A program made the translations under genes and the position numbers. Source: an uncultured virus (IMG/VR IMGVR_UViG_2875882051_000003) (Duplodnaviria; Heunggongvirae; Uroviricota; Caudoviricetes). From it: DNA of 64,000 bases. Shown here piece by piece: positions 1 through 23,454 of the stretch. Position 1 is the first letter of the stretch. Each line of letters starts with the position of its first letter. The stretch lies in the IMG/VR virus record IMGVR_UViG_2875882051_000003; one strand, 5' to 3'. The notes under the pieces are model-generated. The model ran no database searches. It was not told where the DNA came from and saw only the letters and a program-made list of their open reading frames with translations.

Positions 1-197
1 ATTTATCACTCCTAAGAATATATGTTTGTATTTTATTAGCAATATTATAACATTATTTAATAGGATGTGCGAATGTATGTTTGTAAATATAAATGTATCT
101 TAAAATAATAATAAAAAATTGTTTGAAGAGCATAATAGGGTGTATAAAGTAAAGTGACTATTGATTTAAAAATTATATTAATAAAATAAATATCGAG

Positions 198-3331: not shown

Positions 3332-3635
3332 ATTAACAGAATTAATTTATTGTAATTCTAAAATATAGATATATAGCTAAAAAATATTAATATAAGAGAA
3401 CTAAGAGACAACATCTATAGAAATATAGGTGTTTTATTATATCTGTAACTTGAGATTCCTTTATGATTAGATGCATAAAAAGTAGATGAAAATGTATAAA
3501 AAAGTAAATCATTATTTTAATTATAATACAATAATGTTATAATAATCCTATATTCCGTAAAGATGGGTTACGGTGGTTGTGCGTTTTCCGCCTTGGGCTA
3601 TTAGAAATAATGGTCTAAGGGGGTGGTATTAGATT

Positions 3636-3800: not shown

Positions 3801-3890
3801 AGTCCTTTTCTAACCCAAAATAACATCTAATAGCCCTAAAATTAAAAACGTTCTAGGGAAAGTTAGTGTTACAGCACTAACTTTTCTTAT
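3776..3890 (-). ncRNA. Putative antisense antitoxin RNA
   Basis: Minus-strand extended -10 TGaTATAAT at 3903-3895; hairpin AGAAAAGGAC/GTCCTTTTCT (3776-3811) overlapping the toxin stop codon. Confidence 0.5.
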
Positions 3891-3951
3891 TTATATTATA
3901 TCAAATATTTAAAGAAAATAAACATCAATTTTTATAAGTTAATTATAGTTA

Positions 3952-4710
3952 TTATTTATTACAACAAGTCAATGCCCATTGTGTCTTAGAGAAATCTTTT
4001 GGTACGAGTAAATCTTTACTGGAAAGAAAATCTTTCAATTTAAAATATTGTTGACTTGCAATATTTTCATCAGTTGCTTTAAAAGAAATTTCCGCTATTA
4101 TATCTGTGTTATCGTTTGTTTTTCTTGACCAGATGTCTATGTCTATATCTATGTCATTCCATATTCCAGTATATTCTATAGAATGAATTGGACAATAAGC
4201 TTTAGAATTAGAGATTTGTCCTATTCCCCAATTTTTGTTTTCTTTCCAATTTATGAATTGTTCAGGAGCATTTTCAATAAACATTTTTTGTAATTCTTCG
4301 ATAGAAGGAGGGTATGTGGGTAAATCATTAAGTATATCCTTGTTTCTTTCCAATGACATACTTAATGATTTATTTGTATATCCCCATTCAAGTTCTATCT
4401 TATATTCGCTGTCAATTTCTTTGAAGTCGTTTTGAAGTTCGCTTAATGCAGAATTAATATCATTGTCATTTATTTTATATCTTTTTTTATACGTTAGCTC
4501 ATATTTATTTGTTTTTTTACGATTGCGTAGAATCCAGCCAGCTTTATACATATCTTGATCGGCTGTATCAATGAATAGAATTTCTCTTAATTTAGGCTTA
4601 TCAGATATTTGAAAAAGATTAAATATGTCTCCTTTGAGTTCGTAAGCCTCACTCAAAACTTTTGATGGGTCAATAAAAAATTTAATTTCATGTTGTTCTA
4701 TTAATTTCAT
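3952..4710 (-). CDS. CYTH/triphosphate-tunnel-like protein
   Basis: N-terminal ExK (HEIKFF), ILRNRK..YELTYKKR, C-terminal AEISFK. Confidence 0.6.
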   Translation of the reverse strand: MKLIEQHEIKFFIDPSKVLSEAYELKGDIFNLFQISDKPKLREILFIDTADQDMYKAGWILRNRKKTNKYELTYKKRYKINDNDINSALSELQNDFKEIDSEYKIELEWGYTNKSLSMSLERNKDILNDLPTYPPSIEELQKMFIENAPEQFINWKENKNWGIGQISNSKAYCPIHSIEYTGIWNDIDIDIDIWSRKTNDNTDIIAEISFKATDENIASQQYFKLKDFLSSKDLLVPKDFSKTQWALTCCNK

Positions 4711-4948
4711 ATCATTTGCCTCCTTAGTATATCCAAAGTTAAAATATAAAAAATTTATTTTTAATGTGCCCTTAAGGTTTACACATTATTCGATAAAGCT
4801 AAAAATGAAGTGACTAATTTAAATACTACATTAGTTAAAAATGGGTATGAAAGCATAAAAATTTGAATTTTAATTTCTAATGAATAAAAACAAATATTAT
4901 GGGAAGCGTATAACAGGAAATATATATTTAATGAAGGAGGTAGTAAAA

Positions 4949-6817
4949 TTGGAAAATAAAGTAATGAAACTAGTTAATTACACAATTAGAAAAAGTACTA
5001 ATACGATTGATGAGATTCCTTGGAATATTAAGATGATTAAAGCGACTGATTTTTGGAAGAAAGGCGATAATGGTAGAGGGAGAACAATAGCAATTATAGA
5101 TACGGGATGTGATAAGAATCATCCTGATTTAAAAAATAGAATTATCAAGGGTAGTAAAAATTTTACATCTGAAGACAATTGGGATGAAAATAATTTTAAG
5201 GATTATGATGGACATGGAACTCATGTTGCAGGAATTATAGCAGGAAGCTTGAATGAAAATGGAGTAGGTGTCGGAGTAGCTCCAGAGGCAAACTTATTGA
5301 TTCTAAAAGCTGTGAGGAAAGGCGAGGTTATAACTCCTGAATGGAAGCCGATATGTATAATCGAAGCAATTAATTATGCTATAGAATTTGGGAATGTAGA
5401 TATTATATCAATATCACTTGGATGGTATAAGAACTTTCCGGAATTACATGCTGCAATTAAAAGAGCAGTAGAAAAAGATATATTGGTAGTATGTGCCGCT
5501 TCTAATGAGGGAGATGGTAATGGTGATACCGCTGAAATAACCTATCCAGGAGCTTATAATGAAGTAATTTCAGTAGGAGCAATTGATTCAAATAAAAAAG
5601 TGGCCAATTTTAGCAATTCAAATCAGGAAGTAGATTTAGTGGCTCCTGGTGTAAAGATACAATCAACATTCCCTAATAATGATTATGTTACATTAGATGG
5701 TACTTCAATGTCAGCACCGCATGTTTCAGGGGCATTGGCTCTTATTATAAATTGGGCAAAAAAATCTTTCGGTAGAGAATTATCAGAACCTGAATTATAT
5801 GCTCAATTAATTAGAAGAACCATATCTTTGGGAAATAAGAAAACTCTTGAAGGAAATGGTATGCTATATTTAACTGCAGTAGATTTATTGGAAGATTTTC
5901 TTCATAGTGGAAATAATCTATTAAAAGATGAACATATAAAAATGTTAAAAGATTTTTCAGTAGGCTCTGGTTTTAATACTAAATTTTTAGGTGAAGAATT
6001 TGAAATACCATTCCCTAAAGTAATAGGAAAAACTAAAGAAGATGCACTAAATGATGGAGAAATATTTAATTTTAATAATTTTTCTATAGTTATGAATGAA
6101 AAAACAAAATTTGCTATTTATAGTGTGTGTAATATAGATGAAAATAAATATGTAAAGATATCAAGAACCGATGATTGGCATTTTGACCAAAGAATAAAGG
6201 AAGAAAATCAGGTTGGAAATGAGTTCTATAGGAATAATTATTTGGATAGAGGACATTTAACCAGAAGAAAAGATGTATGTTGGGGAACTGAATCTCAGGC
6301 AAGAAAAGCAAATTATGATTCGTTTTGCTTTGCTAATATTTGCTTTCAAGATCATGATTTCAATACTGGTACATGGAATGATTTTGAAGATTGGATTCTT
6401 GATGAATTAGAAGGAAAAGATATGAAGATGAAAATGTCCATATTTACAGGTCCTATTAATAGAGATAGTGATAGAATTTATTGTGGAGCAGGAAGAGGTC
6501 AAGATTGTGGAGTTAGAATTCCAGCAGGTTTTTGGAAAGTAGTAATTTATGTAGATAGTAATAAAGAATTACGTTGCTTAGCCTTTATGGGAAAACAAGA
6601 TGAGTTTTGGTATGATGAAACTGGTAAAAAGCTTGAAAAGCACAAAGTATATCAAGTACCTTTAAATCTTATAAGTGAACTTACAGAAATAGAATTCGAT
6701 AGTAGTCTATATAATGCTAATCCTTTATATTATTGGCCAAATAAAATTACTGCAAGAAATAATATTGCAACTCCACAAATTCATCTAATAAGTGAAAGGG
6801 ATGATATTATTTTTTAG
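4949..6817 (+). CDS. S8 subtilisin fused to a DNA/RNA non-specific (NucA/EndoG-type) endonuclease
   Basis: Triad IIDTG, HGTHVAG, GTSMSAPH; C-terminal DRGHL..N..Q..FN..W motif; probable TTG start at 4949 after AAGGAGG. Confidence 0.85.
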   Translation: MENKVMKLVNYTIRKSTNTIDEIPWNIKMIKATDFWKKGDNGRGRTIAIIDTGCDKNHPDLKNRIIKGSKNFTSEDNWDENNFKDYDGHGTHVAGIIAGSLNENGVGVGVAPEANLLILKAVRKGEVITPEWKPICIIEAINYAIEFGNVDIISISLGWYKNFPELHAAIKRAVEKDILVVCAASNEGDGNGDTAEITYPGAYNEVISVGAIDSNKKVANFSNSNQEVDLVAPGVKIQSTFPNNDYVTLDGTSMSAPHVSGALALIINWAKKSFGRELSEPELYAQLIRRTISLGNKKTLEGNGMLYLTAVDLLEDFLHSGNNLLKDEHIKMLKDFSVGSGFNTKFLGEEFEIPFPKVIGKTKEDALNDGEIFNFNNFSIVMNEKTKFAIYSVCNIDENKYVKISRTDDWHFDQRIKEENQVGNEFYRNNYLDRGHLTRRKDVCWGTESQARKANYDSFCFANICFQDHDFNTGTWNDFEDWILDELEGKDMKMKMSIFTGPINRDSDRIYCGAGRGQDCGVRIPAGFWKVVIYVDSNKELRCLAFMGKQDEFWYDETGKKLEKHKVYQVPLNLISELTEIEFDSSLYNANPLYYWPNKITARNNIATPQIHLISERDDIIF

Positions 6818-6855
6818 AAAAATAATATCATTTATATAAATTTAAGATAACAAAG

Positions 6856-6892
6856 ATGCCACAACATTCAGAAATGAATTTGTGGTATTTTT
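6856..6892 (+). repeat. Cassette-boundary hairpin, copy 1
   Basis: ATGCCACAACATTCAGAAATGAATTTGTGGTATTTTT. Confidence 0.9.
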
Positions 6893-6994
6893 GTTATTTT
6901 ATAGAATCTAATTAACAAATCATGTTACAATTATATTACATAAATATGCTAACTTTTGATAGAAAATTAGAAGTAAATTAAAGATAGGGGATAA

Positions 6995-7273
6995 GTGATG
7001 GAGAAAAAATTCATTAATGGACAAGTTTATAAAGAAATTGATTTTGAAGAAGTTGTAAGTAGTCATAATGACAAAGGGGATATCCTTTATCACATTTTTT
7101 ATGGGGATGTAGATTGGCATCGAGATGGAAATTTACAGAAGGCTCTATGTATTTTTATGAAATATAATAATAAAATAAGTTTTCAAACTCCAGCTAATGT
7201 ATTATTGACTGATCTACTTATAGTTGAAGAAGCTATAAGTAGACTTAAAGCTCGTAATATGGAATTTAAGTAG
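6995..7273 (+). CDS. Hypothetical protein
   Basis: 92 aa ORF with RBS AGGGG. Confidence 0.7.
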   Translation: MMEKKFINGQVYKEIDFEEVVSSHNDKGDILYHIFYGDVDWHRDGNLQKALCIFMKYNNKISFQTPANVLLTDLLIVEEAISRLKARNMEFK

Positions 7274-7413
7274 TTAGTATATCAGAAGATACAAAAATAA
7301 ATTTGAGCTATTATAGATCAGTGTTATATATTCAGGAGCAGAAATGAATAATTTATTGACAAAATAAGAGTTGTTTTATGATAGAAATATCTAAATATAG
7401 GAGTGGATAAGAC

Positions 7414-8079
7414 ATGCCAAACCATTTTGAATTAAAAGTACTCGAAGGAAAGTTGGGATTAAAACTAACACGAGAGAAATATGCAAGAATAAATAATAAA
7501 AGTTCATTTCAAGGAACCATGATTGGTTGTGATTATGTTAATGAGAAAATGAGAATATATACAGATGAATGGTGTAAAAATCATTTTGAAGAATGTATGA
7601 AAAATTATGACCTAAATATGGAGTATTTTTCTTTATTAGATAATAATGAATTTAACTTAGAAATTGATAAATTTCTAAAACAAAATGAGGGGTTTGTTGA
7701 AGTATCAGATCTAAACCTATATCATATGAAACCAGGATATTATTTAATGGTTCTTGATGAATATTGCCAAGTATATATTGGTACCACCAATGACATTAAA
7801 AAACGCATACGGCAACATTGGAGTGGTAATAAGCATTTTGACAGGCTTTTATTACCAATGGGGGCGGTTGATTCTTCGATACTTTCAATTGATAGTTTTA
7901 GAGCTTTTGATACCACAAGAATTTTTGCATATATAACAGAGAAAATATTTGATAACGAAGATAAATTTATAAATGAATTTTCATCTAAATTTGTATGTAA
8001 TAGGCTTTCTGGTGGTAAGTTTAAAGGCATTGGATTGCTTTCGAGTATAATGATGATGAAAAGTCGTAAATTAAAGTAA
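7414..8079 (+). CDS. GIY-YIG nuclease family protein
   Basis: GYY..VYIGTTNDIKKRIRQH, with later conserved E and N. Confidence 0.8.
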   Translation: MPNHFELKVLEGKLGLKLTREKYARINNKSSFQGTMIGCDYVNEKMRIYTDEWCKNHFEECMKNYDLNMEYFSLLDNNEFNLEIDKFLKQNEGFVEVSDLNLYHMKPGYYLMVLDEYCQVYIGTTNDIKKRIRQHWSGNKHFDRLLLPMGAVDSSILSIDSFRAFDTTRIFAYITEKIFDNEDKFINEFSSKFVCNRLSGGKFKGIGLLSSIMMMKSRKLK

Positions 8080-8112
8080 TATATAATGATCGGGGAACAA
8101 TAACTGAGTAAA

Positions 8113-8149
8113 ATGCCGCAATATTCAGAAATGAATTTGTGGTATTTTT
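8113..8149 (+). repeat. Cassette-boundary hairpin, copy 2
   Basis: ATGCCGCAATATTCAGAAATGAATTTGTGGTATTTTT. Confidence 0.9.
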
Positions 8150-8257
8150 ATTATTTTATAGAATTATTTTGAAGACATATATTATAATAATTATATGCTA
8201 CTATATGATAATAGATTATAGAAATAGTAACAAGAGTACATTTAAGGGGGATTTATT

Positions 8258-9352
8258 TTGGGATTTAGAATGAGAAAGTCATTTAAAATAGCACCAGGGG
8301 TTAGGTTAAATGTAGGAACAAAAAGTGCAGGAATTAGTGTGGGTGGTAAAGGTCTAAGATATAGTGTAAATAGTAAAACAGGATCACGTGTAACTGTTGG
8401 AGTTCCAGGTACAGGAATTAGCTATACAACATCCGGAAGAAGTTATAATTCGGCTGCATACTCAAGAAGTCAAGAACTAAGAAGATTAGAAAGGGAACAG
8501 GCCAAACTTGAAGAATTAGAAAGAAATAAGTTAATAGTAGAGATATATGAAAATAAAATTGAGATGATAAAATCTATACATAAAGAATGTGATAATAAAA
8601 TTGATTGGATTAAAATGGAGAAATCAAAGCCGCCATATTATCCTGAAAAGGGTGAAAAAGGAGTCAATGAAGCTAATGCGATAGAGAAACTTCAAGCCTA
8701 TAGACCATCATTTATAGATAAATTATTTAGAAGACAGGATAAAAAAATAGAAGGGTTTAGGTATCTCATCGAAGTAGCAAAGAAAGAGGACGAAAAAGAA
8801 TATAACTCTTGGAAGGAGTTAGTTGATATAGCTAAAAAAATTAACAATGGTGATATACAAGCATATTTAGATGTGATAGATGAATTTAAACCACTAGATG
8901 ATTTGGTTGAGTTTGGAAGTGGTTTTGAATTTTTTTTGGAAGATCCTGATCTGATAGAAGTAGATTTCGATGTGAATACAGAAAGTATTGTTCCAAAGGA
9001 ATGTAAATCATTAACTAAAACAGGAAAAGTATCAACTAAACAAATGACTAAAACTAAATATTTTGATTTACAACAAGATTATGTGTGTTCTTGCACTTTA
9101 AGAATAGCGCGAGATATGTTTGCCTTATTACCGCTTAATTATGTAGTGGTAAATGCGTTAGAAAAAAGGTTAGATACATCAATAGGAAAAAGGGAAAATG
9201 AAGTAATATTATCAGTAAAGATAGATAGAGAAACGTTAGAAGGCTTAAATATGAATTTAATAGACCCATCAGATAGTATGGAGAATTTTGAGTGTAATAT
9301 GAACTTTAAGAAAACTGGTGGATTAGTTAAAGTAGATAGAATAATGGACTAA
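8258..9352 (+). CDS. DUF4236-domain protein
   Basis: N-terminus GFRMRKSFKIAPGVRLNVG...GVPGTGISY is typical of DUF4236. Confidence 0.8.
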   Translation: MGFRMRKSFKIAPGVRLNVGTKSAGISVGGKGLRYSVNSKTGSRVTVGVPGTGISYTTSGRSYNSAAYSRSQELRRLEREQAKLEELERNKLIVEIYENKIEMIKSIHKECDNKIDWIKMEKSKPPYYPEKGEKGVNEANAIEKLQAYRPSFIDKLFRRQDKKIEGFRYLIEVAKKEDEKEYNSWKELVDIAKKINNGDIQAYLDVIDEFKPLDDLVEFGSGFEFFLEDPDLIEVDFDVNTESIVPKECKSLTKTGKVSTKQMTKTKYFDLQQDYVCSCTLRIARDMFALLPLNYVVVNALEKRLDTSIGKRENEVILSVKIDRETLEGLNMNLIDPSDSMENFECNMNFKKTGGLVKVDRIMD

Positions 9353-9412
9353 ATGCATCGTAGTGTAATTAGCTTGAAATCAATATAGTAATATTAAAAT
9401 TAGTTTAGGAGG

Positions 9413-9802
9413 ATGTTTATGACTGATTATGCTAATTTAGCAAATACAGAAGTTGATAAATTGCTAAAAGGTGAAATCAAAGATATGTATGGAAAATACA
9501 TCGAAGAAATTATATGTGAATTGTTGATTTGGGCTTTACATTCAAATAAGAAAGCAAATGAATTTTTTATTAATATCCTAGATGACAGTGAATTATTAGA
9601 ACTGTTATTTTATATTTTGTTAGATGAAAGTGAAGACTATTCGAATGATGCCAGAATCGCAGCAGCTCATTACATTGGAAAATTTGATGAAGATCTTTTA
9701 AAAAAGCATAAAGATGAAATTCTATACGCACTTACTTATGAAATTCATGCATTACATCCTTTTGTAAATCAAAAAAGGCCTAGTTGGTTAAATGAAAAAT
9801 AA
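9413..9802 (+). CDS. Hypothetical helical protein
   Basis: 129 aa ORF with RBS AGGAGG. Confidence 0.7.
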   Translation: MFMTDYANLANTEVDKLLKGEIKDMYGKYIEEIICELLIWALHSNKKANEFFINILDDSELLELLFYILLDESEDYSNDARIAAAHYIGKFDEDLLKKHKDEILYALTYEIHALHPFVNQKRPSWLNEK

Positions 9803-9850
9803 TAATTAATAAAACTGAATATAGAAAATAGATAATAGGAGAATCTTATT

Positions 9851-9877
9851 ATTCAGAAATGAATTTGTGGTATTTTT
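9851..9877 (+). repeat. Cassette-boundary hairpin, copy 3 (left arm truncated)
   Basis: ATTCAGAAATGAATTTGTGGTATTTTT. Confidence 0.85.
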
Positions 9878-9951
9878 CTGCTATTTATGCAAAAATAAAA
9901 AGTAAAAATGATATAATTTACTTACATGTTTTTATTATGGGAGGGATAATA

Positions 9952-10674
9952 ATGTTCAAAATTGAAAGAACCGAAGAAGGCGAATTACGTTTTGTAGGAC
10001 AATTTGATTTAGGTTCGCTTGGTAAATTTCCAAGTGAAAAAATTGAATTTGATATGAACGAGTTTGCACCATTAGACAATGATGTAGATTCTGATTGCGA
10101 AGATAAAGAAAGTAAGTATTATCAAAATAGATTTTCTAGATTATCAAAAATTATTAGAACAGATATGAGTGAAAATGAAAAACTAGAAAAGCTTGGAGCT
10201 TTTTATGAAGAAAAGCAAAAAGAAGTTATTGAAAATTTAGATGTAATTGAAGATAGATTTTTAAAATTCATTATTATGGACTTTGTTGATTGTGATTTCC
10301 CATTTTGGGAAGAAGCTGATGGGAGCTTAACATCATTTATAATTCCAGAAAAAATGCCTAATCATTTATCAAATAATGAAGAGGAATTAATAGATTTAAT
10401 TTATGGTGATCTACCAGATAATATTTATGAGCTGATTGATACAGAATATGAGCCAGGCAAAAATGTAATGTCGGCGAGGGAAATTTGTTTGAAGTATTTT
10501 CCTATGATAGATATAGATAATCTTATTTCAACAATATATCCAGATATATTAGTATTAAATGGTGATATCTTAATATTTCAGTGTTCAAGTAATGTTGGAG
10601 ATGGGATGATTATATGTTCGGCTTATGCAGAGATATTACCAAATTATAAATTCGATGATTGGCATAATCACTAA
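9952..10674 (+). CDS. Hypothetical acidic protein
   Basis: Probable start ATG 9952 after GGAGGG; the track start at 9859 lies inside the repeat. Confidence 0.7.
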   Translation: MFKIERTEEGELRFVGQFDLGSLGKFPSEKIEFDMNEFAPLDNDVDSDCEDKESKYYQNRFSRLSKIIRTDMSENEKLEKLGAFYEEKQKEVIENLDVIEDRFLKFIIMDFVDCDFPFWEEADGSLTSFIIPEKMPNHLSNNEEELIDLIYGDLPDNIYELIDTEYEPGKNVMSAREICLKYFPMIDIDNLISTIYPDILVLNGDILIFQCSSNVGDGMIICSAYAEILPNYKFDDWHNH

Positions 10675-10859
10675 GTTAGAATATTAATTTTATATAACAA
10701 ACAAAAGGAGAACAAAATATAGAATATTCAAATCATGATGAAGTAACAATTTATGTGAATGATGAGCTGTATAAAAGGATAGAGATCGAAGAATGGAATG
10801 ATACATTTACAGTATAGTAATTTAGATTTTTATTGTTTTGAAATTATAAAGGAATCTAT

Positions 10860-10899
10860 ATACCACAAAATTCAGAGAAATGAATTTGTGGTATTTTTT
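10860..10899 (+). repeat. Cassette-boundary hairpin, copy 4
   Basis: ATACCACAAAATTCAGAGAAATGAATTTGTGGTATTTTTT. Confidence 0.9.
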
Positions 10900-10993
10900 G
10901 TTGTTTTATAGATACAAATGGAAGATGATGCTACAATAAAAGTATATTGATAGTAGAATGAAATAATCTAAATTTATGAGGGGGATGTAAACA

Positions 10994-11803
10994 ATGAATA
11001 TTGTTGCATTAAAATCAAATAGAAAAGAATATTATTCAATTTTTCATTTCATTAATATGACAGAAGTTGAACGAGATAATTATAGAGATAATATTGTCTG
11101 CATGGAGTGTGGTGTAGATGCTTATTATAGGAAGCCTACAAAAGATGGTAAAATTGCATGTTTTGGTGCAAAACATATAGACGGGTGTGGTATGTCCAGC
11201 GGTAATAAAAATAAAAGTTTAGATGGCGATAAAGAAACTAATGAGATTGATATACAAACTTCTGAGTTTGATATTAGATGGAATTACATAAACTCGAGTG
11301 ATGTAACAAAAAAAGCAGAAGTTGAAAATCAGGATGAAGCTGTCATAAAAAATACAAGAAAATACACAAAAAAGCCATCGATAGAAAAGAATATAAAAAT
11401 CAGTTTGAATCAAATTTTGGAATTTGCAGAATTAGATATTATTAAAGATCAAGAATTTTCAGTAAATATAAATAATAAGAATTTATTACTGAAAGATATC
11501 GTTATGAATATTGAGGAAATTAATGATAACAGCATAGATAAAGATATGTTTTTCTGGGGAAATATATCAAGTTTTAATGGTGATTATATAAATACAGTAT
11601 ATAGAAATAAAGTAAGTATAATAATTGATAAATCTATAAGTTTAAAATTCTGGAAAACATATAGGAATAGAATTTTAAAGATAATAAAAAATAATTCAGT
11701 CATAATCTTTGGGAAAGCCAAGAAATCCCAAAAAGGTAACTATTACATATTGCTTAATGATATTAAGACGTTTTATATCAAGAATGCTAGGAAAAATAAT
11801 TAA
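10994..11803 (+). CDS. Hypothetical protein with N-terminal Zn-ribbon-like motif
   Basis: CMEC..CF..H...C motif. Confidence 0.65.
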   Translation: MNIVALKSNRKEYYSIFHFINMTEVERDNYRDNIVCMECGVDAYYRKPTKDGKIACFGAKHIDGCGMSSGNKNKSLDGDKETNEIDIQTSEFDIRWNYINSSDVTKKAEVENQDEAVIKNTRKYTKKPSIEKNIKISLNQILEFAELDIIKDQEFSVNINNKNLLLKDIVMNIEEINDNSIDKDMFFWGNISSFNGDYINTVYRNKVSIIIDKSISLKFWKTYRNRILKIIKNNSVIIFGKAKKSQKGNYYILLNDIKTFYIKNARKNN

Positions 11804-11817
11804 AGGAGTTTGAAAAA

Positions 11818-13014
11818 ATGAATATATTAGTCATAGGAAATGGGTTTGATTTAGAACATGGATTACCAACAATGTATAAGGATTTTTTGAAATATATTAG
11901 AATAGTAGGAGCTATATCAGATCTTGGAAAAGATGAGAATATTGAAGTTGTGATAGATAGGTTAACTGCAAATGATGCTTATTTTAATAAATATTTTAAA
12001 GAGATTTTTACTAATGGAATGCTAGATGAAAATAATATAATTAATGAATTAATAGAATTAAGTAAAAATAATATTTGGATAAAGTATTTCAGAGATTTAA
12101 ATTTTAATGGAAATAAAGGGTGGATTGATTTTGAATATGAAATTTCACATGTAATTAGAAGCTTAGATTATATGAAAAAATATAGATATAGAACAAGAAT
12201 CCAAAAAGAAATTGATGTTAGTAAGAACAGGGATGCTAACAATATAGAAAATCATATTGAAAAAATTATTGGAGAATTATCTAAAAGAATAGAATATCTC
12301 AATGAAGATGAATATAACAAGGAAATAACTAAAAGACTTCAGCAACACTTAGAGAATTTAATTAGATGCTTAGAAATATATTTAGAAGATTGTGTTGGTA
12401 AAATAGATACAGCATATTTAGCGCCAGATATAAAAGATATTAAATTTGATAAAGTATTAAGTTTTAATTATACCAATACTTACGAAAGAATATACGATTT
12501 TAATAATAAAGAGATAGAATATCATTATATTCATGGAAAAGCTGATATTACTCGTGCTGTTGACGATAATAATATGGTTCTGGGGATAGATGAGTATCTT
12601 GATGATGAATCTAAAGACAAAGAGTTAGAATTTATTGCTTTTAAAAAATATTTTCAAAGAATTTATAAAAAGACAGGAAACGAATATAGAAAATGGATTT
12701 TGAGAATGAAAGATATTGAATATGAAACTATAGGTGAATGCGATGAAATAGGTCAATACCAAACACAAAAAATTAAAAATGAAGTATATATATTTGGTCA
12801 TTCACTTGACATAACAGATAAAGATATTATAAAGGAATTAATTGAATGCCCAAATACAGAAACAACAATTTTTTATTACGATAAAGGTGTATATGCTCAA
12901 CAGATTGCTAACTTAGTAAAAGTAATTGGACAAGATGAGCTAATAAAAAGAGTTTCGGGAGCAAATCCAACTATTGTTTTTAAACAGCAGCAAAAGAAAA
13001 TTGAGAGAAATTAG
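11818..13014 (+). CDS. abiH: AbiH-family abortive-infection protein (SIR2-like)
   Basis: ILVIGNGFDL.HGLPT.Y.DF, SFNYT, YIHG, IFGHSL..D motifs. Confidence 0.8.
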   Translation: MNILVIGNGFDLEHGLPTMYKDFLKYIRIVGAISDLGKDENIEVVIDRLTANDAYFNKYFKEIFTNGMLDENNIINELIELSKNNIWIKYFRDLNFNGNKGWIDFEYEISHVIRSLDYMKKYRYRTRIQKEIDVSKNRDANNIENHIEKIIGELSKRIEYLNEDEYNKEITKRLQQHLENLIRCLEIYLEDCVGKIDTAYLAPDIKDIKFDKVLSFNYTNTYERIYDFNNKEIEYHYIHGKADITRAVDDNNMVLGIDEYLDDESKDKELEFIAFKKYFQRIYKKTGNEYRKWILRMKDIEYETIGECDEIGQYQTQKIKNEVYIFGHSLDITDKDIIKELIECPNTETTIFYYDKGVYAQQIANLVKVIGQDELIKRVSGANPTIVFKQQQKKIERN

Positions 13015-13046
13015 TTTTTATTTATATAGCTATAAGGAGTGAGTTC

Positions 13047-14456
13047 ATGTATAGATTTAGGTCAACTAAGTATCTTTTAGATGAAGAGTTCAAGGAACTT
13101 GAAAATCAGGAAATTTATTTTGCTCCACCAGAACAACTTAATGATCCGATGGAAGGTTTTAAAGATATATTTTGGCAAGGTGATGAAATTCTTTGGAAAA
13201 ACTTTTTGAAACATTATCTTTTGTGTTTTGAACATATTGTTTCCATCTGGAGTGTAATTGGAGAAAGCGAGAGAATAGAGGGAAATTATATTCCAGTATT
13301 CAAAACGGAAACAGAATTGTTAACAGAAGAACATAAGCAAAGATTTAGTGATATAAAGGAAAAATTCTTTTCAAATAAGTGTATTTCAAATCTGCCTAAG
13401 TTACTATCTAGCAGAAAAGTACCTATAAGAATAAATGAGCTAACAATGTATCTAGAATTTGTACATAAATTTGCATTTGATTCTATAAACTTAGTGTACT
13501 CGCAAAAAGGTCTTATGGATAGAATTGAAATTTTAGGAGATAAGGCTGATGACGTTACCACTTTTCAAAAAATTATCGAAGGCGCAAATAGGTTCTGTGA
13601 AGATATTAATTATAAAGATAATGGCGAAGAAATATTTGAAGTACTAAAGAATACGAGCGATGAACTTAAATTGATATCTTATTATAATAAAGATATTGAT
13701 TTTAATCATCATAATATGAAGTTTATAATTGAAACATTTCCAAGTTCTTATTTATCAATATTAGATAAACTAATATATCAAAAATGGTATACAGCTTGTT
13801 TTATGGATAATTATCATAATTCATCAGTTTGGGGAAGTTATGGAGATAATCATAAAGGAATTTGTTTAGAATTTAAAACTAAGAAAAAGGAAGGGGATGA
13901 GTATTTAACATTAAAGAGTATTAAAAGCTGTGGTACTACAGGTGATATAGTTGAAAAACGTGATTATGAATTGAAAAAAGTTACATATCAAAAAAAATTT
14001 ATAGAAATAGATTTTTTTAAATCTTTAGGACGTTTATCAATAACAAAACTTAAGTCGCAATGGTATGTGGATGAGAATGGGAATAGTAGCAAATATATCG
14101 ATTTGGGAAAATTTGATGACGATTGGAGAAACTTATATTGGGATGATTTTTATAAGAGTGTTACGACTAAAACTGAAGATTGGAAATATGAATGCGAGTA
14201 TAGAATGGTTATAGATGAATACTTTACAGACTATGGAGAAATAGAAAAGAGAAAGCTTATATACGATTTTAATGATTTAGATGGGATTATATTTGGAATT
14301 AAAACATCAGATTCAGATAAAATTAAAATTATGAGAATAATTGAAAAAAAGTGTAGAGAAACTGGGCGTGATAAGTTTAATTTCTATCAAGCTAAATATT
14401 CTCATGAAACAGGACAAATTGAACGCAAAAGGCTTAATTTACTGAAATTCAAATAA
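13047..14456 (+). CDS. DUF2971-domain protein
   Basis: YRFR..LNDPMEG, ACF..WGSYGDNHKGICLEF, K..DWKYECEYR, IIFG motifs. Confidence 0.8.
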   Translation: MYRFRSTKYLLDEEFKELENQEIYFAPPEQLNDPMEGFKDIFWQGDEILWKNFLKHYLLCFEHIVSIWSVIGESERIEGNYIPVFKTETELLTEEHKQRFSDIKEKFFSNKCISNLPKLLSSRKVPIRINELTMYLEFVHKFAFDSINLVYSQKGLMDRIEILGDKADDVTTFQKIIEGANRFCEDINYKDNGEEIFEVLKNTSDELKLISYYNKDIDFNHHNMKFIIETFPSSYLSILDKLIYQKWYTACFMDNYHNSSVWGSYGDNHKGICLEFKTKKKEGDEYLTLKSIKSCGTTGDIVEKRDYELKKVTYQKKFIEIDFFKSLGRLSITKLKSQWYVDENGNSSKYIDLGKFDDDWRNLYWDDFYKSVTTKTEDWKYECEYRMVIDEYFTDYGEIEKRKLIYDFNDLDGIIFGIKTSDSDKIKIMRIIEKKCRETGRDKFNFYQAKYSHETGQIERKRLNLLKFK

Positions 14457-14530
14457 ATTAAACTTAAATATTAATAAATAAGTTGTAAAGTCAGTATAAA
14501 TGTTCATTTTATTAAAAATATCTAATTTAT

Positions 14531-14568
14531 ATACCACAACATTCAGAAATGAATTTGTGGTGTTTTTT
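14531..14568 (+). repeat. Cassette-boundary hairpin, copy 5
   Basis: ATACCACAACATTCAGAAATGAATTTGTGGTGTTTTTT. Confidence 0.9.
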
Positions 14569-14724
14569 GTGTTACTTAATAATGCCATATTGGGAAAATG
14601 TGCTATAATAATAGCAGACTCATAGAAGCTTATATAATGATATTTTGAATTATAAAAATATGTTTGTAAAAATAATTTATAATGTGTAGATAGTGATTAG
14701 TGACTAAGTAAGGAGGATGTAAAT

Positions 14725-15483
14725 ATGGCGGTACAAAAGGGTAAGAATGAGAAATTAAGACAAATAATAAAGATGTTATATGAATATGAATTAAGACATA
14801 ATAACAGAAATTATAGTGATATTTATGAAAAAGTAATTTGCGAGTACTTGGAATTTTTTCCAAGTGAAGATATTGATCTTAACAGCGATAATTTTAAAAA
14901 TTGTTATCCTGATCCAGATAACTCTTTAACAGGATTAAGTTTTGAATTAGCAGGAAGAGGGTTAGTAACTCCTAAAATTATTTCAAGGGCAGGAATATCA
15001 AACTTTGCTTTTAAATTAACTAGCAATGGTAAGGCTTTGTTTGAAAATAAAGAGGAGTTAGAAAAACAATTTCCAAGTGTTGAAGATAACTTCGCATTTG
15101 TAGTTATGTCATTTTCTGAAAATAAAGTTTTAAAAGATGCATATGAATTAGGCATAAAAGCTACAATTAAAAAATGTGGGTATAACTGTATAAGAGTAGA
15201 TGAAATTGAGCACAATCGCAGAATTACTGATAAGGTTATTGAATGTATCAAATCAGCAAAATTTATTATAGCCGATCTAACAGAGCAAAGGCCAAATTGT
15301 TATTATGAACTTGGATTTGCCCATGCATTAGAAAAAGAGGTTATTCATTTAGTTAAAGAGGGAGAAGTAATCCATTTTGATATAAAAGACTACAATTTTA
15401 TAGTTTACTCGAGTATAACGGAACTGGCAGAAAGATTAGAGGAAAGAATAATTAATACTATAGGAAAAATGGATAAGGAATAA
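14725..15483 (+). CDS. Nucleoside 2-deoxyribosyltransferase-like (TIR-like fold) protein
   Basis: FVVMSF, IADLTEQRPNCYYELGFAHAL, HFDI motifs. Confidence 0.75.
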   Translation: MAVQKGKNEKLRQIIKMLYEYELRHNNRNYSDIYEKVICEYLEFFPSEDIDLNSDNFKNCYPDPDNSLTGLSFELAGRGLVTPKIISRAGISNFAFKLTSNGKALFENKEELEKQFPSVEDNFAFVVMSFSENKVLKDAYELGIKATIKKCGYNCIRVDEIEHNRRITDKVIECIKSAKFIIADLTEQRPNCYYELGFAHALEKEVIHLVKEGEVIHFDIKDYNFIVYSSITELAERLEERIINTIGKMDKE

Positions 15484-15917
15484 AAAACTTGATATATGAT
15501 AAAACAATAATAACTATATGAAAAACAAATTAAAAAGCATATATATAATTTGAAAAAATGTTTTTGAAAATGGAATAAAGCAATTTATGGTTTTATGAAT
15601 TTGCTATTCAACTGCTTTCAATGGATAATATGAAAGATATTAATATGAATATGAGGGTGAGAAATTGGTTGGATTCTAAGACTTTTCTAGGGAATGGTAA
15701 TCATATTTGGATCTCAATAATTAGTTAAAGAGAAATTGATAAGGAAAGTACTTTCATTATAGGAGTTATTGAACTATGGATGATACTACAAAATAAAGAA
15801 TAATGTACTTTTTTACATTCTTGAAGAGAAGTTTAAATGTTATTTTACTAATAGAAGATACAGTATTTTTACTTATATCTTCTATTAATTATATATAAAA
15901 ATACCTCTATAAAATAA

Positions 15918-16340
15918 TTATTTTACAAGTCGTCTAATCGCAGAAACTATTGAATCTGTTGACCAATTAACAATCTCATTTGCATTATTAGAAACATAAG
16001 TAGGTGTTATGACGTTTCCATATGGTTTGATACCTAATATAGGTTTTCCCATACGTTTTGATTCATCGATTTCATATTGAATCCAATCTTTATATTGTAC
16101 ATACATTCCAGCAATAACAATTGTTATCTGAGATGGTGATATTTTATCTGTTATTTTTTTAGCTATATCAGAATTTGTTAAAGGAGTTCCAACAGGAAAC
16201 AAGGGTTTTTCTTTTGGCGCAGAGTAATTATAGTAACTAAAATTTTTGGCATTATCTAAAAGGTTAACTAATCTTGTATAATCGTCACCATATTTCCAAG
16301 CGTGACTTATAAAAAGTCTGTAATCATATAAACTAGGCAT
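15918..16340 (-). CDS. TIR-domain protein (MTH538/DUF1863, ThsB-like)
   Basis: LFISHAW, WIQYEI, KPILGI motifs. Confidence 0.85.
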   Translation of the reverse strand: MPSLYDYRLFISHAWKYGDDYTRLVNLLDNAKNFSYYNYSAPKEKPLFPVGTPLTNSDIAKKITDKISPSQITIVIAGMYVQYKDWIQYEIDESKRMGKPILGIKPYGNVITPTYVSNNANEIVNWSTDSIVSAIRRLVK

Positions 16341-16410
16341 AATTGTATATCATCCTTTCTTTATTGTAGTATAATAGTTATAATAATTATTTTATTATGG
16401 AGGTACTTTC

Positions 16411-16605
16411 ATGCAGATAAAGAAATATAGAAAGAAACCAATAATAATAACAGCTTATCAAACCGATAGAGAACTTCTAATTAATACTTTAGAAGGGACA
16501 CTAAAAGCAAATGTTGGAGATTATATTATAACTGGAGTGAATGGAGAGCAATATCCTTGCAAACCAGATATATTTGAAAAAACTTATGAACTAGTAGAAG
16601 AATAA
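16411..16605 (+). CDS. Small PGDYG-like protein
   Basis: [43 protein letters not shown]. Confidence 0.7.
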
Positions 16606-17111
16606 TTACTTGCGGACTGGTTTTGAGAAGAACGATTTTTAGAATTGATATTTAGCCAATCCTTCCTTTCATTACTCATTAGATTTTCACAGGTTATTAT
16701 TAATAGTTCTTCTGGATCAGTACAATTTTTGTAATCTCCACATTTTGTTTCAAAGAAAATTTTTTCTCTAATTAAATTTTCACAGATAGTCCTATATTTA
16801 AGCCAATTTTCTTGATACTTATTTAATTGAATTAAGCTTGAGAATATGCATATAATTGAAGACAAAGATGTAGTAACAATTTTAACTTCAAACGATAAAG
16901 TATCAGAAAATATCACTATAATAGGAATAAGAGAATTGAAGATAAGGGTGCAGATGGTGAAAAATTTAAAACCTTTTTGCGCCTTTTTACTTTTATTGTC
17001 ATACCATTGTATTTGTTCAGTAAGCCTTTTTTCTATATAACTTGATCTGTCAATAGCTGATGTTCTATTATCTTCATTAATAATATTTTTAAAAAATTTA
17101 CAAATTTTCAT
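16584..17111 (-). CDS. DUF4231/SLATT two-TM protein
   Basis: RL..QI.WYD.KS, two hydrophobic helices, W..YR...E.L..E. Confidence 0.8.
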
Positions 17112-17131
17112 AATTACCTCTATTTTATAGT

Positions 17132-17596
17132 TTATTTATTATTTAATGAATTAAATTTCATTTTAATAATCTCAACTGGAACATAATAGCTGCTAGCTAC
17201 TTGTTCTAATGAAAATCCATTTAGCTCAAGCTGATTCACAGCTAAATCATCAATTAAAAATTCAGCAGCAAAAACGTTAGCCTCGTATTCAGATTTAATC
17301 TTGCTTATATAATTATTTTCATTTATAAAAAAACATGAAGATTTAGGATGTAGAACTGCATGTCCAATTTCGTGAGCCAAAACAAAGCGTCTTTCAATTT
17401 CAGATAAAATTGAATTAATAAAGATGACTTTGTTTTTTCTTATGTATTTGTACATACCCCACACGCTACCCAAAGGTTGAATGATTACAGTAATATCTAG
17501 GCATTCTGCTAATTCATAAGGGGATGAAGTATTGTATTTCTTCTTTAGTTTATTAATAATTTTCCTAATGTAATCCCCAGTCAAATTAACCACCAC
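17132..17596 (-). CDS. ImmA/IrrE-like anti-repressor metallopeptidase
   Basis: RFVLAHEIGH and E.EAN.FAAEFL; directly downstream of the repressor. Confidence 0.88.
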   Translation of the reverse strand: MVVNLTGDYIRKIINKLKKKYNTSSPYELAECLDITVIIQPLGSVWGMYKYIRKNKVIFINSILSEIERRFVLAHEIGHAVLHPKSSCFFINENNYISKIKSEYEANVFAAEFLIDDLAVNQLELNGFSLEQVASSYYVPVEIIKMKFNSLNNK

Positions 17597-18031
17597 CTAT
17601 TTCTTAAATTTATCTGGTGTATATTTCTTCTTATTCTTTATTTTAATTTGTTCTAGGGCCACATTCATTGCAGTTTCAATAAGATCAAAGTCTTCATCTC
17701 TAAGTTCTATGCCATTATAATATTTAGTTCCGTCAGTTTGTTCTTTAAAGTCATCCATTATGTTTTTGAGATCCTTTTGAATATCTTTTTTATCTTTCTC
17801 AGTTAAGTTAATAGCTGTATTAGGTTCTGATGAATCAGATTTTCCAAGCAAGTAATCAAGAGAAACATTATAATATTCAGCAAATTTTAGTTTCATTTCA
17901 TCACTTGGAGTTCTAGTATTTGATTCATATTGAGAAAGTGTACTTCTAGCAATATTGAAGCGCTTTGCCAGTTCGGTTTGTGAAATCTCTTTTTGAAGCC
18001 TTAGTAATTTTAATCGTTCACCTAAATTCAC
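17597..18031 (-). CDS. CI/ImmR-like XRE repressor
   Basis: XRE HTH; divergent from cro-like gene. Confidence 0.9.
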   Translation of the reverse strand: MNLGERLKLLRLQKEISQTELAKRFNIARSTLSQYESNTRTPSDEMKLKFAEYYNVSLDYLLGKSDSSEPNTAINLTEKDKKDIQKDLKNIMDDFKEQTDGTKYYNGIELRDEDFDLIETAMNVALEQIKIKNKKKYTPDKFKK

Positions 18032-18047
18032 AGTTAATTCACTCCTT

Positions 18048-18184
18048 TTTCACTATTTGTGAAATTATTATAATTGTACCCCAAATGTACTGGAAAACAA
18101 TACATTTTCACTAAATGTGAAATAAATATTGACTTTCACAATATGTGACACTATAATAAAGATAGAAGTTCACAAAATGAGAAA
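18048..18184. promoter_or_regulatory. Lysis/lysogeny switch: operators TTTCAC-N5-GTGAAA and rightward sigmaA promoter
   Basis: Palindromes at 18048-64, 18106-22, 18134-50, 18168-84; TTGACT (18129)-N17-TATAAT (18152). Confidence 0.85.
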
Positions 18185-18197
18185 AAGAGGTGGTTTA

Positions 18198-18401
18198 ATG
18201 AATAATGCAATGAAACAATATAGAGAAAGGATTGGGGTAACTCAGTCACAAATGGCAGAACAATTAGGGATTGCAGTGAGCACCTATAATATGATTGAAA
18301 ATGGTAAAAGAGGTGTTTCTGTAATATTTGCAAAAAAAATCTCATTATTGCTGAATACTTCAATAGATAATCTTTTTTTTAAGGATGTTGTTCACATATA
18401 G
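18198..18401 (+). CDS. Cro-like HTH protein
   Basis: ATG 18198 after GAGGTGG; XRE HTH. Confidence 0.85.
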   Translation: MNNAMKQYRERIGVTQSQMAEQLGIAVSTYNMIENGKRGVSVIFAKKISLLLNTSIDNLFFKDVVHI

Positions 18402-18515
18402 AGAACAATATAACTCACTAATTATTATAAATTTGAAAGAAGGTGAAATAAATCGATATTCATTCACTAAAGAAAAGTAAAATAAGCAATTTCAATACTG
18501 GAAGGGAGAGAAATT

Positions 18516-18809
18516 ATGGAAGGAAATACAAAAATAATTAAGCTCAATGAAGAAGAAATTAAAGATTTATTTTGTGCTGCTTGGCATTTAACAAATCTTA
18601 TAGAGGATTGTAAGGAAGCTAAAGTTGCAAGCTTCATTACGCCATGTGAAACTTGCAAATATCAAGTAGAGTGCAATAAAAATGATAATTTCGATGCGTA
18701 TGGTCATTTTGAAACATTAACAAAGTTAACTGGCGTAATATGTACTCCACTTAAAGGAGCCAGAGAACTAGCAGAGATAGGTAAATTTAATTTCATTGTA
18801 AAACAATAA
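18516..18809 (+). CDS. Hypothetical phage protein (CxxC)
   Basis: 97 aa ORF with RBS. Confidence 0.65.
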   Translation: MEGNTKIIKLNEEEIKDLFCAAWHLTNLIEDCKEAKVASFITPCETCKYQVECNKNDNFDAYGHFETLTKLTGVICTPLKGARELAEIGKFNFIVKQ

Positions 18810-18810
18810 A

Positions 18811-22533: not shown

Positions 22534-23454
22534 ATGGCTGAAACAGGATTGGTTTTGAGTAAAGAGGATGCATTTAATAATGTTATGGCTAAGATAGCAG
22601 CACTAGAAAAAAATAATGGTATTAAGTTACCTAAGAATTATTCAGCAGAAAATGCAATTAATTCAGCTTGGTTGATGCTTCAGGAAGTAGTAGATAAAGA
22701 GAAAAAGCCGGCACTTGAAGTATGTACAAAAACTTCGATAGTTGAAGCTTTATACAACATGGTATTGCAAGGATTAAGCCCTTCCAAAAGACAATGTTAT
22801 TTTATAGTACACGGAAGCAAATTAACTCTTATGAAAAGCTATATGGGAAGTATTGTTGCAACAAAAAGATTAAGTGGAATAAAAGATGTAAAAGCCTTTG
22901 TGATATATGAAGGTGATGTATTTGAAACAGTATTCAATAATGAAACATATACCATTGAATTTAACTATAATCCAAAGTTTGAAAATATAAATTCAAATAA
23001 GATAAAAGGTGCATTTGCATTAATAATAGGTGATGATAATAAGTTACTTCATACTGAGATAATGACAATAGATCAAATAAGAAAGTCATGGGGTATGGGT
23101 ATAGCTTATAAAAGCGGAAAATCAAATACACATAGTGACTTTGGAGAAGAGATGGCGAAGAAGAGCGTTATAAATAGGGCTTGCAAGAGGTTCTATAATA
23201 CCTCAGATGATAGTGATGTATTAATAGACAGTTTAAACAATACAGACGAAGATTATGATGAAGCAGATATTATTGAAAATACTAAAGAGCAGGTACATGA
23301 AGAAATTAAAGCTAATGCAAACCAAGAAGTAATAGATGTAGATCCAAAGCAAGTAACAGAGATTGATAACAACAATAATGAAAATCCAATTCAAAAAGAT
23401 TTAAATAATAAGAAAACTGAAAAAGCAGAACAGCAAATGATGTGTGAATTTTAA
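22534..23454 (+). CDS. recT: RecT-family single-strand annealing recombinase
   Basis: GLSP..QCYFI, SYMG, EMAKKSVINRACK motifs. Confidence 0.85.
   Translation: MAETGLVLSKEDAFNNVMAKIAALEKNNGIKLPKNYSAENAINSAWLMLQEVVDKEKKPALEVCTKTSIVEALYNMVLQGLSPSKRQCYFIVHGSKLTLMKSYMGSIVATKRLSGIKDVKAFVIYEGDVFETVFNNETYTIEFNYNPKFENINSNKIKGAFALIIGDDNKLLHTEIMTIDQIRKSWGMGIAYKSGKSNTHSDFGEEMAKKSVINRACKRFYNTSDDSDVLIDSLNNTDEDYDEADIIENTKEQVHEEIKANANQEVIDVDPKQVTEIDNNNNENPIQKDLNNKKTEKAEQQMMCEF

Follow-up and report, generated by a model that had tools for sequence, protein, structure and literature searches.

A recurrent hairpin, predicted to form a terminator-promoter junction, separates anti-phage gene cassettes of a Clostridium prophage and punctuates chromosomal gene arrays in Clostridiaceae

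The window analysed here is the whole of a 64,000-nt stretch of the uncultured virus IMGVR_UViG_2875882051_000003 (coordinates given without a locus name are window positions), and it carries an array of gene cassettes separated by copies of a short hairpin element. A direct-repeat search (families D1 and D2) identified five copies of this element in the 64 kb, all on the plus strand (Table 1). A search for the 27-nt core of the element gave 4 matches at up to 3 mismatches, compared with 0.00 expected from 100 shuffles, and the fifth copy, which it missed, is the one with a 1-nt insertion in its loop. A covariance model scored the five copies at 48.8–68.6 bits and, with filters off, reported no further plus-strand copy below E 0.4 in the whole 64 kb, phage core included; its weak minus-strand matches at the sites of the copies are echoes of the palindrome. 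All five copies are intergenic and lie 34–186 nt past the stop of a co-oriented open reading frame (ORF), with copy 4 at 186 nt past the ORF for a protein of 240 amino acids (aa). Copy 1 starts 39 nt past the stop of a gene that fuses a subtilase to a non-specific endonuclease, and this gene is the unit that copy 1 closes. These searches bear out two statements in a first-pass annotation of this DNA, namely that five co-oriented intergenic copies are present and that the phage core lacks the element. Two other statements require correction. The copy at 9851, described as truncated, aligned over the full length of the model, with substitutions in its 5′ arm that give U-G wobbles and one mismatch. 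A proposed degenerate copy at about 7329–7350 had a fold z of 0.68 (151 of 200 shuffles were as good) and was unreported by the model at E≤10. Rfam has no family for the element; at E≤1 on positions 1–20000 it gave nothing at the elements and three weak, chance-level matches elsewhere.

The genes between the copies include several related to known defence systems. Earlier calls of GIY-YIG, DUF4236, AbiH, DUF2971 and nucleoside deoxyribosyltransferase (NDT)-like proteins were confirmed by Pfam and PADLOC, the NDT match falling below the cut-off. The GIY-YIG protein of cassette 1 was identified as UzuA (PADLOC 3e-97; Pfam GIY-YIG) and covers only positions 52–267 of the 277-position PADLOC model. 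In cassette 4, AbiH was supported by Pfam (5.4e-48) and DUF2971/PDC-S31 by PADLOC (6e-20), and the basis for cassette 5 is a PADLOC TIR effector match (8e-13) together with the sub-threshold Pfam NDT match (5.7e-05). The acidic protein of cassette 3 had no family match in Pfam, PADLOC and PHROG scans. No element lies 3′ of cassette 5.

Each window copy folds as a hairpin followed by a run of 5–7 T, with energies of −15 to −30 kcal/mol and z scores of −3.0 to −8.9. In a structure alignment of 45 copies, drawn from the window and 24 other loci, the 14-pair stem was formed in 92.2% of pair cells, compared with at most 49.9% when the partners were slid by 1–3 columns, and the stem contained 36 double-sided changes, compared with 16.8 in shuffles, none of 500 of which reached 36. 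Three outer-stem pairs alternate between C-G, U-A and U-G or between G-C, A-U and G-U. Because the pattern used to collect the copies consisted of the inner stem, the loop and the 3′ arm, leaving the outer 5′ arm outside it, the complementarity of that arm is independent evidence for the fold. The G-U pairs are many and form only on the sense strand of the flanking genes, which argues that the sense strand is the one that folds. The hairpin has an outer stem that covaries, an asymmetric internal loop that is conserved and a near-invariant inner stem capped by a GAAA loop. Invariance of the inner stem and the GAAA loop is 90% or more, and one extra base in the 5′ arm, a conserved bulge, is present in nearly all of the 45 copies.

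The features of an intrinsic terminator are present in that a stable hairpin is followed directly by a U-run on the sense strand. When 150 model matches from all loci studied were placed relative to ORFs, with a crude picking of ORFs, 125 had a co-oriented ORF end within 150 nt upstream (median 54 nt), only 3 had an opposite-strand ORF within the same span and 2 lay inside ORFs. A co-oriented ORF start within 350 nt downstream was found for 100 of the 150.

A second motif lies beyond the hairpin. The pattern TGNTAYAAT, which resembles an extended −10 promoter motif, occurs at 15 sites in the window on both strands, about the number expected by chance, and 4 of its 9 plus-strand sites sit 30–33 nt past the T-runs of copies 1, 3, 4 and 5, a register that by our own arithmetic is far beyond chance. 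Copy 2 is followed at a greater distance by a weaker motif that does not match the pattern. The common register indicates that the element is the first half of a terminator-promoter junction of ~80 nt, in agreement with the 82-nt length of repeat family D1; the unit is therefore not the ~35-bp element described initially, but a hairpin of ~47 nt with its T-run, extended by the promoter-like motif. The bases exactly common to the window junctions amount to only ~28–33, with an identity of 62–79% over 82 nt. Given the fold, the T-run and the register of the −10-like motifs, we consider it very likely that the element is a composite terminator-promoter junction.

Table 1. Element copies, −10-like motifs, cassettes and other genes of the window.
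Feature	Position	Strand	Remarks
Predicted promoter and ribosome-binding site of a large serine recombinase gene	1..100	−	Alignment with L014 and L081
Patatin-like gene	198-1217		Upstream of array
RmrT/RmrA	1481-3331		Upstream of array
252-aa ORF		−	Upstream of array
Subtilase + non-specific endonuclease fusion	4880..6817	+	Pfam Peptidase_S8 1.8e-57, Endonuclease_NS 1.6e-34
Element copy 1, hairpin + T-run	6852..6898	+	Covariance model 64.3 bits; fold −30.1 kcal/mol, z −8.9
Extended −10-like motif TGnTACAAT	6923..6931	+	31 nt past copy 1 T-run; in register with family D1
Cassette 1	6995..8079	+	92-aa ORF 6995-7273; UzuA/Uzume GIY-YIG 7414-8079
Element copy 2, 3′ of UzuA	8109..8155	+	Covariance model 68.6 bits; fold z −4.9
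Weaker extended −10-like motif TGcTACTAT	8196..8204	+	47 nt past copy 2 T-run; read by eye
Cassette 2	8258..9802	+	DUF4236 8258-9352 (Pfam 3e-19); 129-aa ORF 9413-9802
Element copy 3, 3′ of 129-aa ORF	9837..9883	+	Covariance model 48.8 bits, model positions 1-47
Extended −10-like motif	9909..9917	+	32 nt past copy 3 T-run
Cassette 3	9952..10674	+	240-aa acidic protein
Element copy 4, 1-nt loop insertion	10856..10904	+	Covariance model 52.9 bits; fold z −4.2
Extended −10-like motif	10929..10937	+	30 nt past copy 4 T-run
Cassette 4	10994..14456	+	269-aa Zn-ribbon-like ORF; AbiH 11818-13014; DUF2971/PDC-S31 13047-14456
Element copy 5, 3′ of DUF2971 gene	14527..14573	+	Covariance model 61 bits; fold z −3.0
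Extended −10-like motif	14601..14609	+	33 nt past copy 5 T-run; promoter scan 10/12 with TG
Cassette 5	14725..15483	+	TIR/nucleoside-deoxyribosyltransferase-like protein
RecT-like annealing protein	22534..23454	+	PHROG 148, 3e-58

The element is also found on bacterial chromosomes. Its core pattern at up to 3 mismatches occurred in 43 of 301 sampled genomes of the family of Clostridium malenominatum (Clostridiaceae), with no match for the reversed control. At class level, 251 sampled genomes were scanned with the commonest variant, allowing 2 mismatches at most and so with a threshold unlike that of the family search, and the centre genome itself was the sole match (0 of the 250 others). Within a genome the element is low-copy, strongly clustered and co-oriented. 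Model matches numbered at least 16–46 per genome, lower bounds because 150 candidates were scored in each. In genome G135, 22 of the 24 matches listed (21 distinct sites) fell within 72 kb of contig 1 (89–161 kb), and the covariance model found 29 minus-strand copies in the 92 kb examined. Other loci reach local densities of 10 copies in 9 kb (L054), 10 in 16 kb (L047), 8 in 10 kb (L050) and 7 in 4.6 kb (L051). Rare and clustered in this way, the element is not the evenly scattered generic terminator that would have refuted the first-pass annotation.

Units of the chromosomal arrays are mostly single genes. Their cargo includes many GNAT acetyltransferases, glyoxalases, alpha/beta hydrolases and nitroreductases, with a Cass2/GyrI-like regulator, hexapeptide transferases, beta-lactamase-fold proteins and domains of unknown function (DUFs). 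Defence genes are few there, and with such cargo the specific link to anti-phage genes proposed at first is not supported. The exception is an element-flanked unit at L043 (2637–5620, genome G002) that encodes a caspase-family peptidase and a 701-aa protein with a weak, sub-threshold Dynamin_N match. It is possible, to judge from these similarities, that the caspase and dynamin-like genes form a defence pair, in a genome that also holds the L002 array described below.

Copies also stand alone 3′ of ordinary chromosomal genes, as behind a phosphoribosyltransferase gene (L003), a 94-aa ORF beside asnA (L011) and a membrane protein gene (L005). Such lone copies are what would be left by a selfish repeat, of the miniature inverted-repeat transposable element (MITE) or repetitive extragenic palindromic (REP) type, that inserts 3′ of genes and is kept as a terminator with no role in exchange, and hairpin-forming intergenic families are known in the genus, namely Clop-1 of C. 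perfringens and Clot-1 of C. tetani (PMC2267715, in excerpt). The element is not one of these two, whose sequences differ from it. Its strict co-orientation with upstream genes (the 125 of 150 matches above) and its extreme clustering are unlike dispersed transposition, and no target-site duplications or terminal inverted repeats were noted around the hairpin. The element differs from REPs and bacterial interspersed mosaic elements (BIMEs) in being low-copy and in having no consistent Y1 (REP-associated tyrosine, RAYT) transposase: a search for PF01797 gave no match in G062, a genome with at least 26 model matches, and in the other genomes its matches lay away from the arrays. We therefore regard a purely selfish origin as highly improbable.

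A provirus, L016 (98% complete), carries one box-gene-hairpin unit, the box being the motif described below, with a methylase gene on one side and a sigma-like gene on the other. The element is missing from the nearest viral record, G001, and megablast of positions 6700–15700 against 50,697 phage records gave no match. Neither the 4 viral loci related to UzuA nor the 6 related to DUF4236 carry the element, and a search of the viral collection gave no relative of the TIR/NDT-like protein. An exact 19-mer scan of the genome and viral collections returned 19 loci, of which 13 lacked the hairpin arm and T-run and were dismissed as chance, leaving 6 real relatives. In three RNA-seq runs bearing the same species label, 2–3 of 30 bins were covered, at 90–95% likeness, by a strain without the island. 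The reads of this other strain match 10719–10873, upstream of copy 4, at 90–95% and continue into unrelated sequence on both sides; the relative of this segment is a transcribed piece in another context, and no window ORF of at least 50 aa is listed at 10700–10873.

The junction of the chromosomal arrays is longer than that of the window and consists of the hairpin, a semi-conserved spacer of 40–60 nt, a 27-nt box and an extended −10 motif, with the box at about −26 to −52 relative to that motif. With 6 substitutions allowed, the box was matched 44 times in 638 kb, compared with 0 for the reversed control, and 21 of these matches follow a hairpin by no more than 150 nt; at the same threshold there is no match in the window. 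Examples are found at L054 (4552–4578), L055 (6942–6968) and L016 (9094–9120). In the chromosomal arrays a 15-nt core within the box is complementary, in reverse, to the hairpin 5′ arm, and at L016 its complementarity to the 5′ arm of the hairpin closing that unit is exact. At 7 variable positions the box matched the 5′ arm downstream of it at 5.18 of 7 (n=39 units), compared with 4.26 for the upstream hairpin (n=19) and 4.59 for random pairs, a comparison of means only. At L003 (9959–10032) a box-like sequence abuts the hairpin, and an alternative hairpin with the 5′ arm is possible. The box and the apical loop may resemble the palindromic CodY-box consensus, a likeness that would suit a common regulator.

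Comparison with related loci revealed how the cassettes differ between genomes. L002, a related prophage fragment from another organism, carries beside its own CI/Cro genes a PDC-S65 gene, an element, AbiH with DUF2971, an element, two FRG genes, an element and Avs5. Only the AbiH-DUF2971 cassette is common to the window and L002, at ~75% DNA identity, and its homology stops 11 nt (L002) or 78 nt (window) before the next element. Single cassettes of the chromosomal arrays turn up in different species amid unrelated neighbours, a PhzF-like gene at 98.3% identity, a hydrolase at 94.6%, a GNAT at 91% and others at 77–83%. Identity falls from ~100% to ~50%, which on the 3′ side happens at the hairpin or just past it and on the 5′ side at the box or spacer. 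The ends of the shared segments vary: some fall where the box starts, others within the spacer or the hairpin and others ~25 nt beyond the T-run. In the closest relative, a metagenome record (L078/L084) that is 97% identical to window positions 3410–3945 and 19053–20904, the cargo between these conserved flanks is entirely different and includes three junctions, and CI is also different. Among the replacing genes is one for a pentapeptide/ion-channel protein, and three cassettes (L078, 8162–15389) encode large, little-annotated proteins that by their position are candidate defence genes: one of 754 aa with a SEC-C motif at its C-terminus, one of 463 aa that weakly matches LmuA and one of 1101 aa with an HD-CE domain. 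The idea that the repeat is the shared boundary of exchangeable blocks is supported in that cassettes recur with different neighbours and their homology ends within the junction.

One explanation for these results, which on balance we think probable, is that the element is a terminator-promoter junction and that cassettes are exchanged by homologous recombination between its copies. The junction would end transcription of one unit and start that of the next, so that each defence block would be a transcription unit of its own (a "moron"), insulated from its neighbours, in the accessory arm of the prophage. Cassettes that are otherwise unrelated have the same junction of ~50–200 nt in common, and homologous recombination between junctions could therefore delete, duplicate, replace or import them. 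On chromosomes the junction would punctuate long co-oriented arrays, and in prophages it would flank single morons or short arrays. Host RecA or a RecT-type annealing protein of the phage may be the agent. RecT-family annealing proteins act on short homologies, and the RecT-like protein of the prophage is for this reason a plausible trans-acting helper of short-homology exchange. The variable crossover points, the sense-strand fold, the promoter-like motif of each unit and the lack of a consistent recombinase all fit homologous recombination and not an integron-type reaction. Terminator and promoter activity, an origin of the mosaicism in recombination and a part for RecT are inferences from the sequences compared, and the junction probably marks the seams of gene exchange.

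Exchange at the element is also favoured by the ends of inter-genome matches. Among 39 such matches of at least 300 nt, 39 of the 156 ends lay within 100 nt of an element, compared with 11.2 ± 3.1 (maximum 25 in 2000 trials) for random positions, a null that overstates the enrichment because homology tends to end at gene ends, where the elements sit. Several observations weigh against this explanation. The 28–33 exact bases of the window junctions are short for RecA-type recombination. The stem is AT-rich and the element was missed by a simple terminator scan, and the invariant apical stem-loop and conserved bulge exceed what a terminator needs. The outer limits of the L078 swap (3945 and ~18424–19053) lie away from the element. 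In L081 the junctions that correspond by homology to copies 2 and 3 enclose the 129-aa gene alone, with DUF4236 missing; L014 keeps DUF4236 but then has a different gene; and in L002 AbiH directly follows the junction, with the Zn-ribbon gene missing. Since the DUF4236 and Zn-ribbon differences lie off the junctions, genes are also gained and lost at sites without the element. The expectation that breakpoints between related loci would fall at the repeat therefore held in part, for the ends of cassette homology but not for the DUF4236, Zn-ribbon and outer swap limits. The DNA contigs of run X1, which drop rare forms, held no joints between copies.

Gene gains and losses away from the element would also be expected if the junctions were shared expression signals only, a terminator and a promoter with the operator of a common regulator, maintained by descent and by co-regulatory selection, with mosaicism arising from illegitimate and homologous recombination of the ordinary kind, unrelated to the element. 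A regulon could explain why the box is conserved beyond the needs of recombination and is placed where regulators bind, but it accounts for a common operator and not for a common terminator behind unrelated genes. It also fails to explain why the window junctions keep the hairpin without the box, and why the ends of shared segments are enriched at junctions. We consider expression signals alone to be an unlikely account of the arrays.

The layout of the arrays invites comparison with integrons, among them sedentary chromosomal integrons and attC clusters that lack an integrase, a likeness to integrons having been proposed in the first-pass annotation. As in integrons, co-oriented and mostly single-gene cassettes are each followed by an imperfect hairpin repeat, and the cargo is similar (acetyltransferases, glyoxalases and Cass2-like proteins, with anti-phage genes in the prophage copy). 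However, no IntI-type integrase is adjacent, and the consensus of the element lacks the conserved outer core motifs of attC, judged against the attC consensus. attC sites act through the folded bottom strand, whereas it is the sense strand that folds in the element, its G-U pairs being mismatches on the bottom strand. In addition, each junction of the arrays has a promoter-like motif and crossover points vary, in contrast to the promoterless cassettes and fixed crossover of integrons. The integron analogy is attractive in form and unsupported in mechanism, and the integron-like, site-specific array first proposed was not upheld, for want of attC-type ends, a fixed crossover and a consistent integrase and because the units have promoter-like motifs of their own.

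A different enzyme might still be involved, in a dedicated cassette-capture system that would be the Clostridiaceae analogue of an integron and would read the folded hairpin and the matching 15-nt box motif to move promoter-gene-terminator units site-specifically. The layout and cargo resemble those of sedentary integrons, with up to ~29 co-oriented units of mostly single small genes. The apical stem-loop and the extra base of the 5′ arm are conserved to a degree that recognition by an enzyme could explain, and so could the exact complementarity of box core and 5′ arm at L016 and the closer match of the box 7-mers to the downstream arm. The boundaries of shared cassettes, on the other hand, fall at differing junction points between events, the sense strand folds, unlike that of attC, and each unit has its own promoter-like motif. 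Nor does a recombinase accompany the arrays consistently. Of the five genomes checked, tyrosine recombinase genes (PF00589) adjoin the main arrays in none of G135, G284 and G279, and none is present in the window; serine recombinases were not at the arrays of the genomes checked, no Y1 transposase adjoins the main arrays of the same three genomes, and the Y1_Tnp search of G062 was negative, as noted above. In G048, a divergently oriented tyrosine-recombinase gene or fragment lies 2–5 kb upstream of two arrays (contig 11, 129367–129861, a 234-aa frame; contig 5, 259–648, a fragment with an internal stop), whereas the arrays of the four remaining genomes showed no such arrangement. We rate a dedicated capture enzyme as improbable. 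A broader form of the idea, in which a family-wide, integron-like system without an integron integrase stores ready-to-express promoter-gene-terminator units by the dozen in chromosomal arrays, uses a hairpin-recognising activity to move them between chromosomes and prophages and so stocks defence islands, is only slightly easier to credit and is still doubtful. The same slim chance applies to the proposal, made within it, that the 15-nt motif bounds the units and would occur three times in each, once in the promoter box and once in each arm of the hairpin.

Exchange by homologous recombination at a terminator-promoter junction has its closest described counterpart in the PeSLs (promoter-early stem-loops) of T4-like phages, composite stem-loop terminator/promoter motifs of hyperplastic regions, between copies of which recombination is held to insert, delete and replace genes (Arbiol et al. 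2010, PMC2839356; Comeau et al. 2014, PMC4122927; both in excerpt). In the same excerpts mini-circles and promoter/terminator activity are reported as demonstrated for PeSLs, whereas for the element such activities are predicted from sequence. By analogy, the element would work like a PeSL. Both have a conserved boundary motif that joins a stem-loop terminator to a sigma-70-type promoter, as predicted here, and copies of the element are clustered, much as PeSLs are concentrated in hyperplastic regions rich in non-essential genes. The differences are that the hosts here are a temperate Clostridium prophage and chiefly bacterial chromosomes, rather than lytic T4-like phages of Gram-negatives, that arrays reach ~29 units and that the terminator lies 30–110 nt upstream of the promoter; the element is presumably unrelated to PeSLs in sequence and is set apart by host and context.

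Two further comparisons concern genes with their own signals. Morons and the genes of prophage defence hotspots are accessory genes in a prophage arm with their own promoter and terminator. The cassettes of the window resemble these in being accessory anti-phage genes (Uzume, AbiH and TIR-like, with RmrTA nearby) beside the immunity region with their own predicted signals, but differ in that unrelated morons here have mutually homologous signals, which are homologous also to the junctions of chromosomal arrays in other species. Similar regulatory sequences are reused before unrelated genes within and between prokaryote genomes as "mobile" promoters (Nijveen et al. 2012, PMC3575422, in excerpt). 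That survey, so far as excerpted, concerned promoters alone, whereas here the terminator is the best conserved part and the units stand in arrays. We found no description of the element in the literature on Clostridium integron-like or cassette-array repeats, as covered by Creative Commons-licensed PMC papers and bioRxiv.

The array converges on a minus-strand block (15918–18031) with genes for a ThsB-like TIR protein, a SLATT/DUF4231 protein, an M78 peptidase and CI, in which the TIR and SLATT candidate defence genes would be co-transcribed with the CI repressor gene, to judge from their arrangement. A Cro-like gene and then a myovirus-type prophage follow, from ~18 to 62 kb. At the other end, the reverse complement of window positions 1–100 corresponds to sequence that in L014 and L081 leads into a large serine recombinase gene, whose start codon would fall 2–3 nt beyond the window edge, so by alignment the serine integrase of the prophage very probably lies just left of the window. 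The whole island would then lie between the integrase and the CI repressor, and the earlier statement that no recombinase is linked to the array in the window holds in that none is encoded at the array, with the qualification that this integrase is very probably close by. No direct repeat longer than 15 nt that could mark an attachment site was found between 1–16000 and 60900–64000, and a tRNA search found no tRNA gene.

Some smaller features lie upstream of the array and in its sequence. The segment 3410–3945 is a promoter-gene-terminator unit for a 54-aa peptide with a hydrophobic N-terminus (predicted extended −10 at 3535–3543, plus-strand ORF at 3636–3800 and a strong terminator at 3854–3889). 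Its DNA is 97% identical to L078, with different DNA on either side, and on the left this identity begins exactly where a further GAAA-loop hairpin with a T-run lies. By its predicted features the peptide may be a small toxin from a type I toxin-antitoxin system; a weak Rfam ctRNA match lies on the minus strand at 3771–3809. A long, near-perfect palindrome (1249–1323) stands between the patatin-like gene and RmrT, in a stretch (1235–1425) that folds at −38 kcal/mol (z −2.9). Positions 1247–1417 match two places in L005 and one in L044 at 73–82%, a recurrence that makes this a second repeated intergenic hairpin family; the palindrome also recurs in loci of G002, and Rfam gave only a chance-level mir-2319 match to it, on both strands. 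Single-base indels distinguish the window from otherwise identical run X1 contigs at 7004, 7418, 9563, 12698, 14222, 14388 and 14761. The indel at 7418 lies 4 nt into the called UzuA ORF, which lacks the first 51 positions of the PADLOC model, and one of the two assemblies may contain homopolymer errors that affect ORF calls.

We conclude that the boundary element is real and more general than the first-pass annotation could see. If the reading of a terminator-promoter junction with exchange by homologous recombination is true, it would provide a sequence-level handle on the shuffling of accessory genes in Clostridium and its phages, with a recognisable junction that marks the seams of self-expressing units and ties chromosomal gene pools to prophage defence islands. 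PeSL-type shuffling, so far described only for lytic T4-like phages, would then extend to temperate phages and to the chromosomes of Gram-positive anaerobes. The covariance model can serve as a probe for variable cargo and for unannotated defence candidates, among which are the 240-aa acidic protein, the DUF4236 protein and the 754-aa, 463-aa and 1101-aa proteins of L078. An integron-like layout and cargo without an integrase would, in addition, make these arrays a testable case for convergent cassette storage in the Clostridiaceae.

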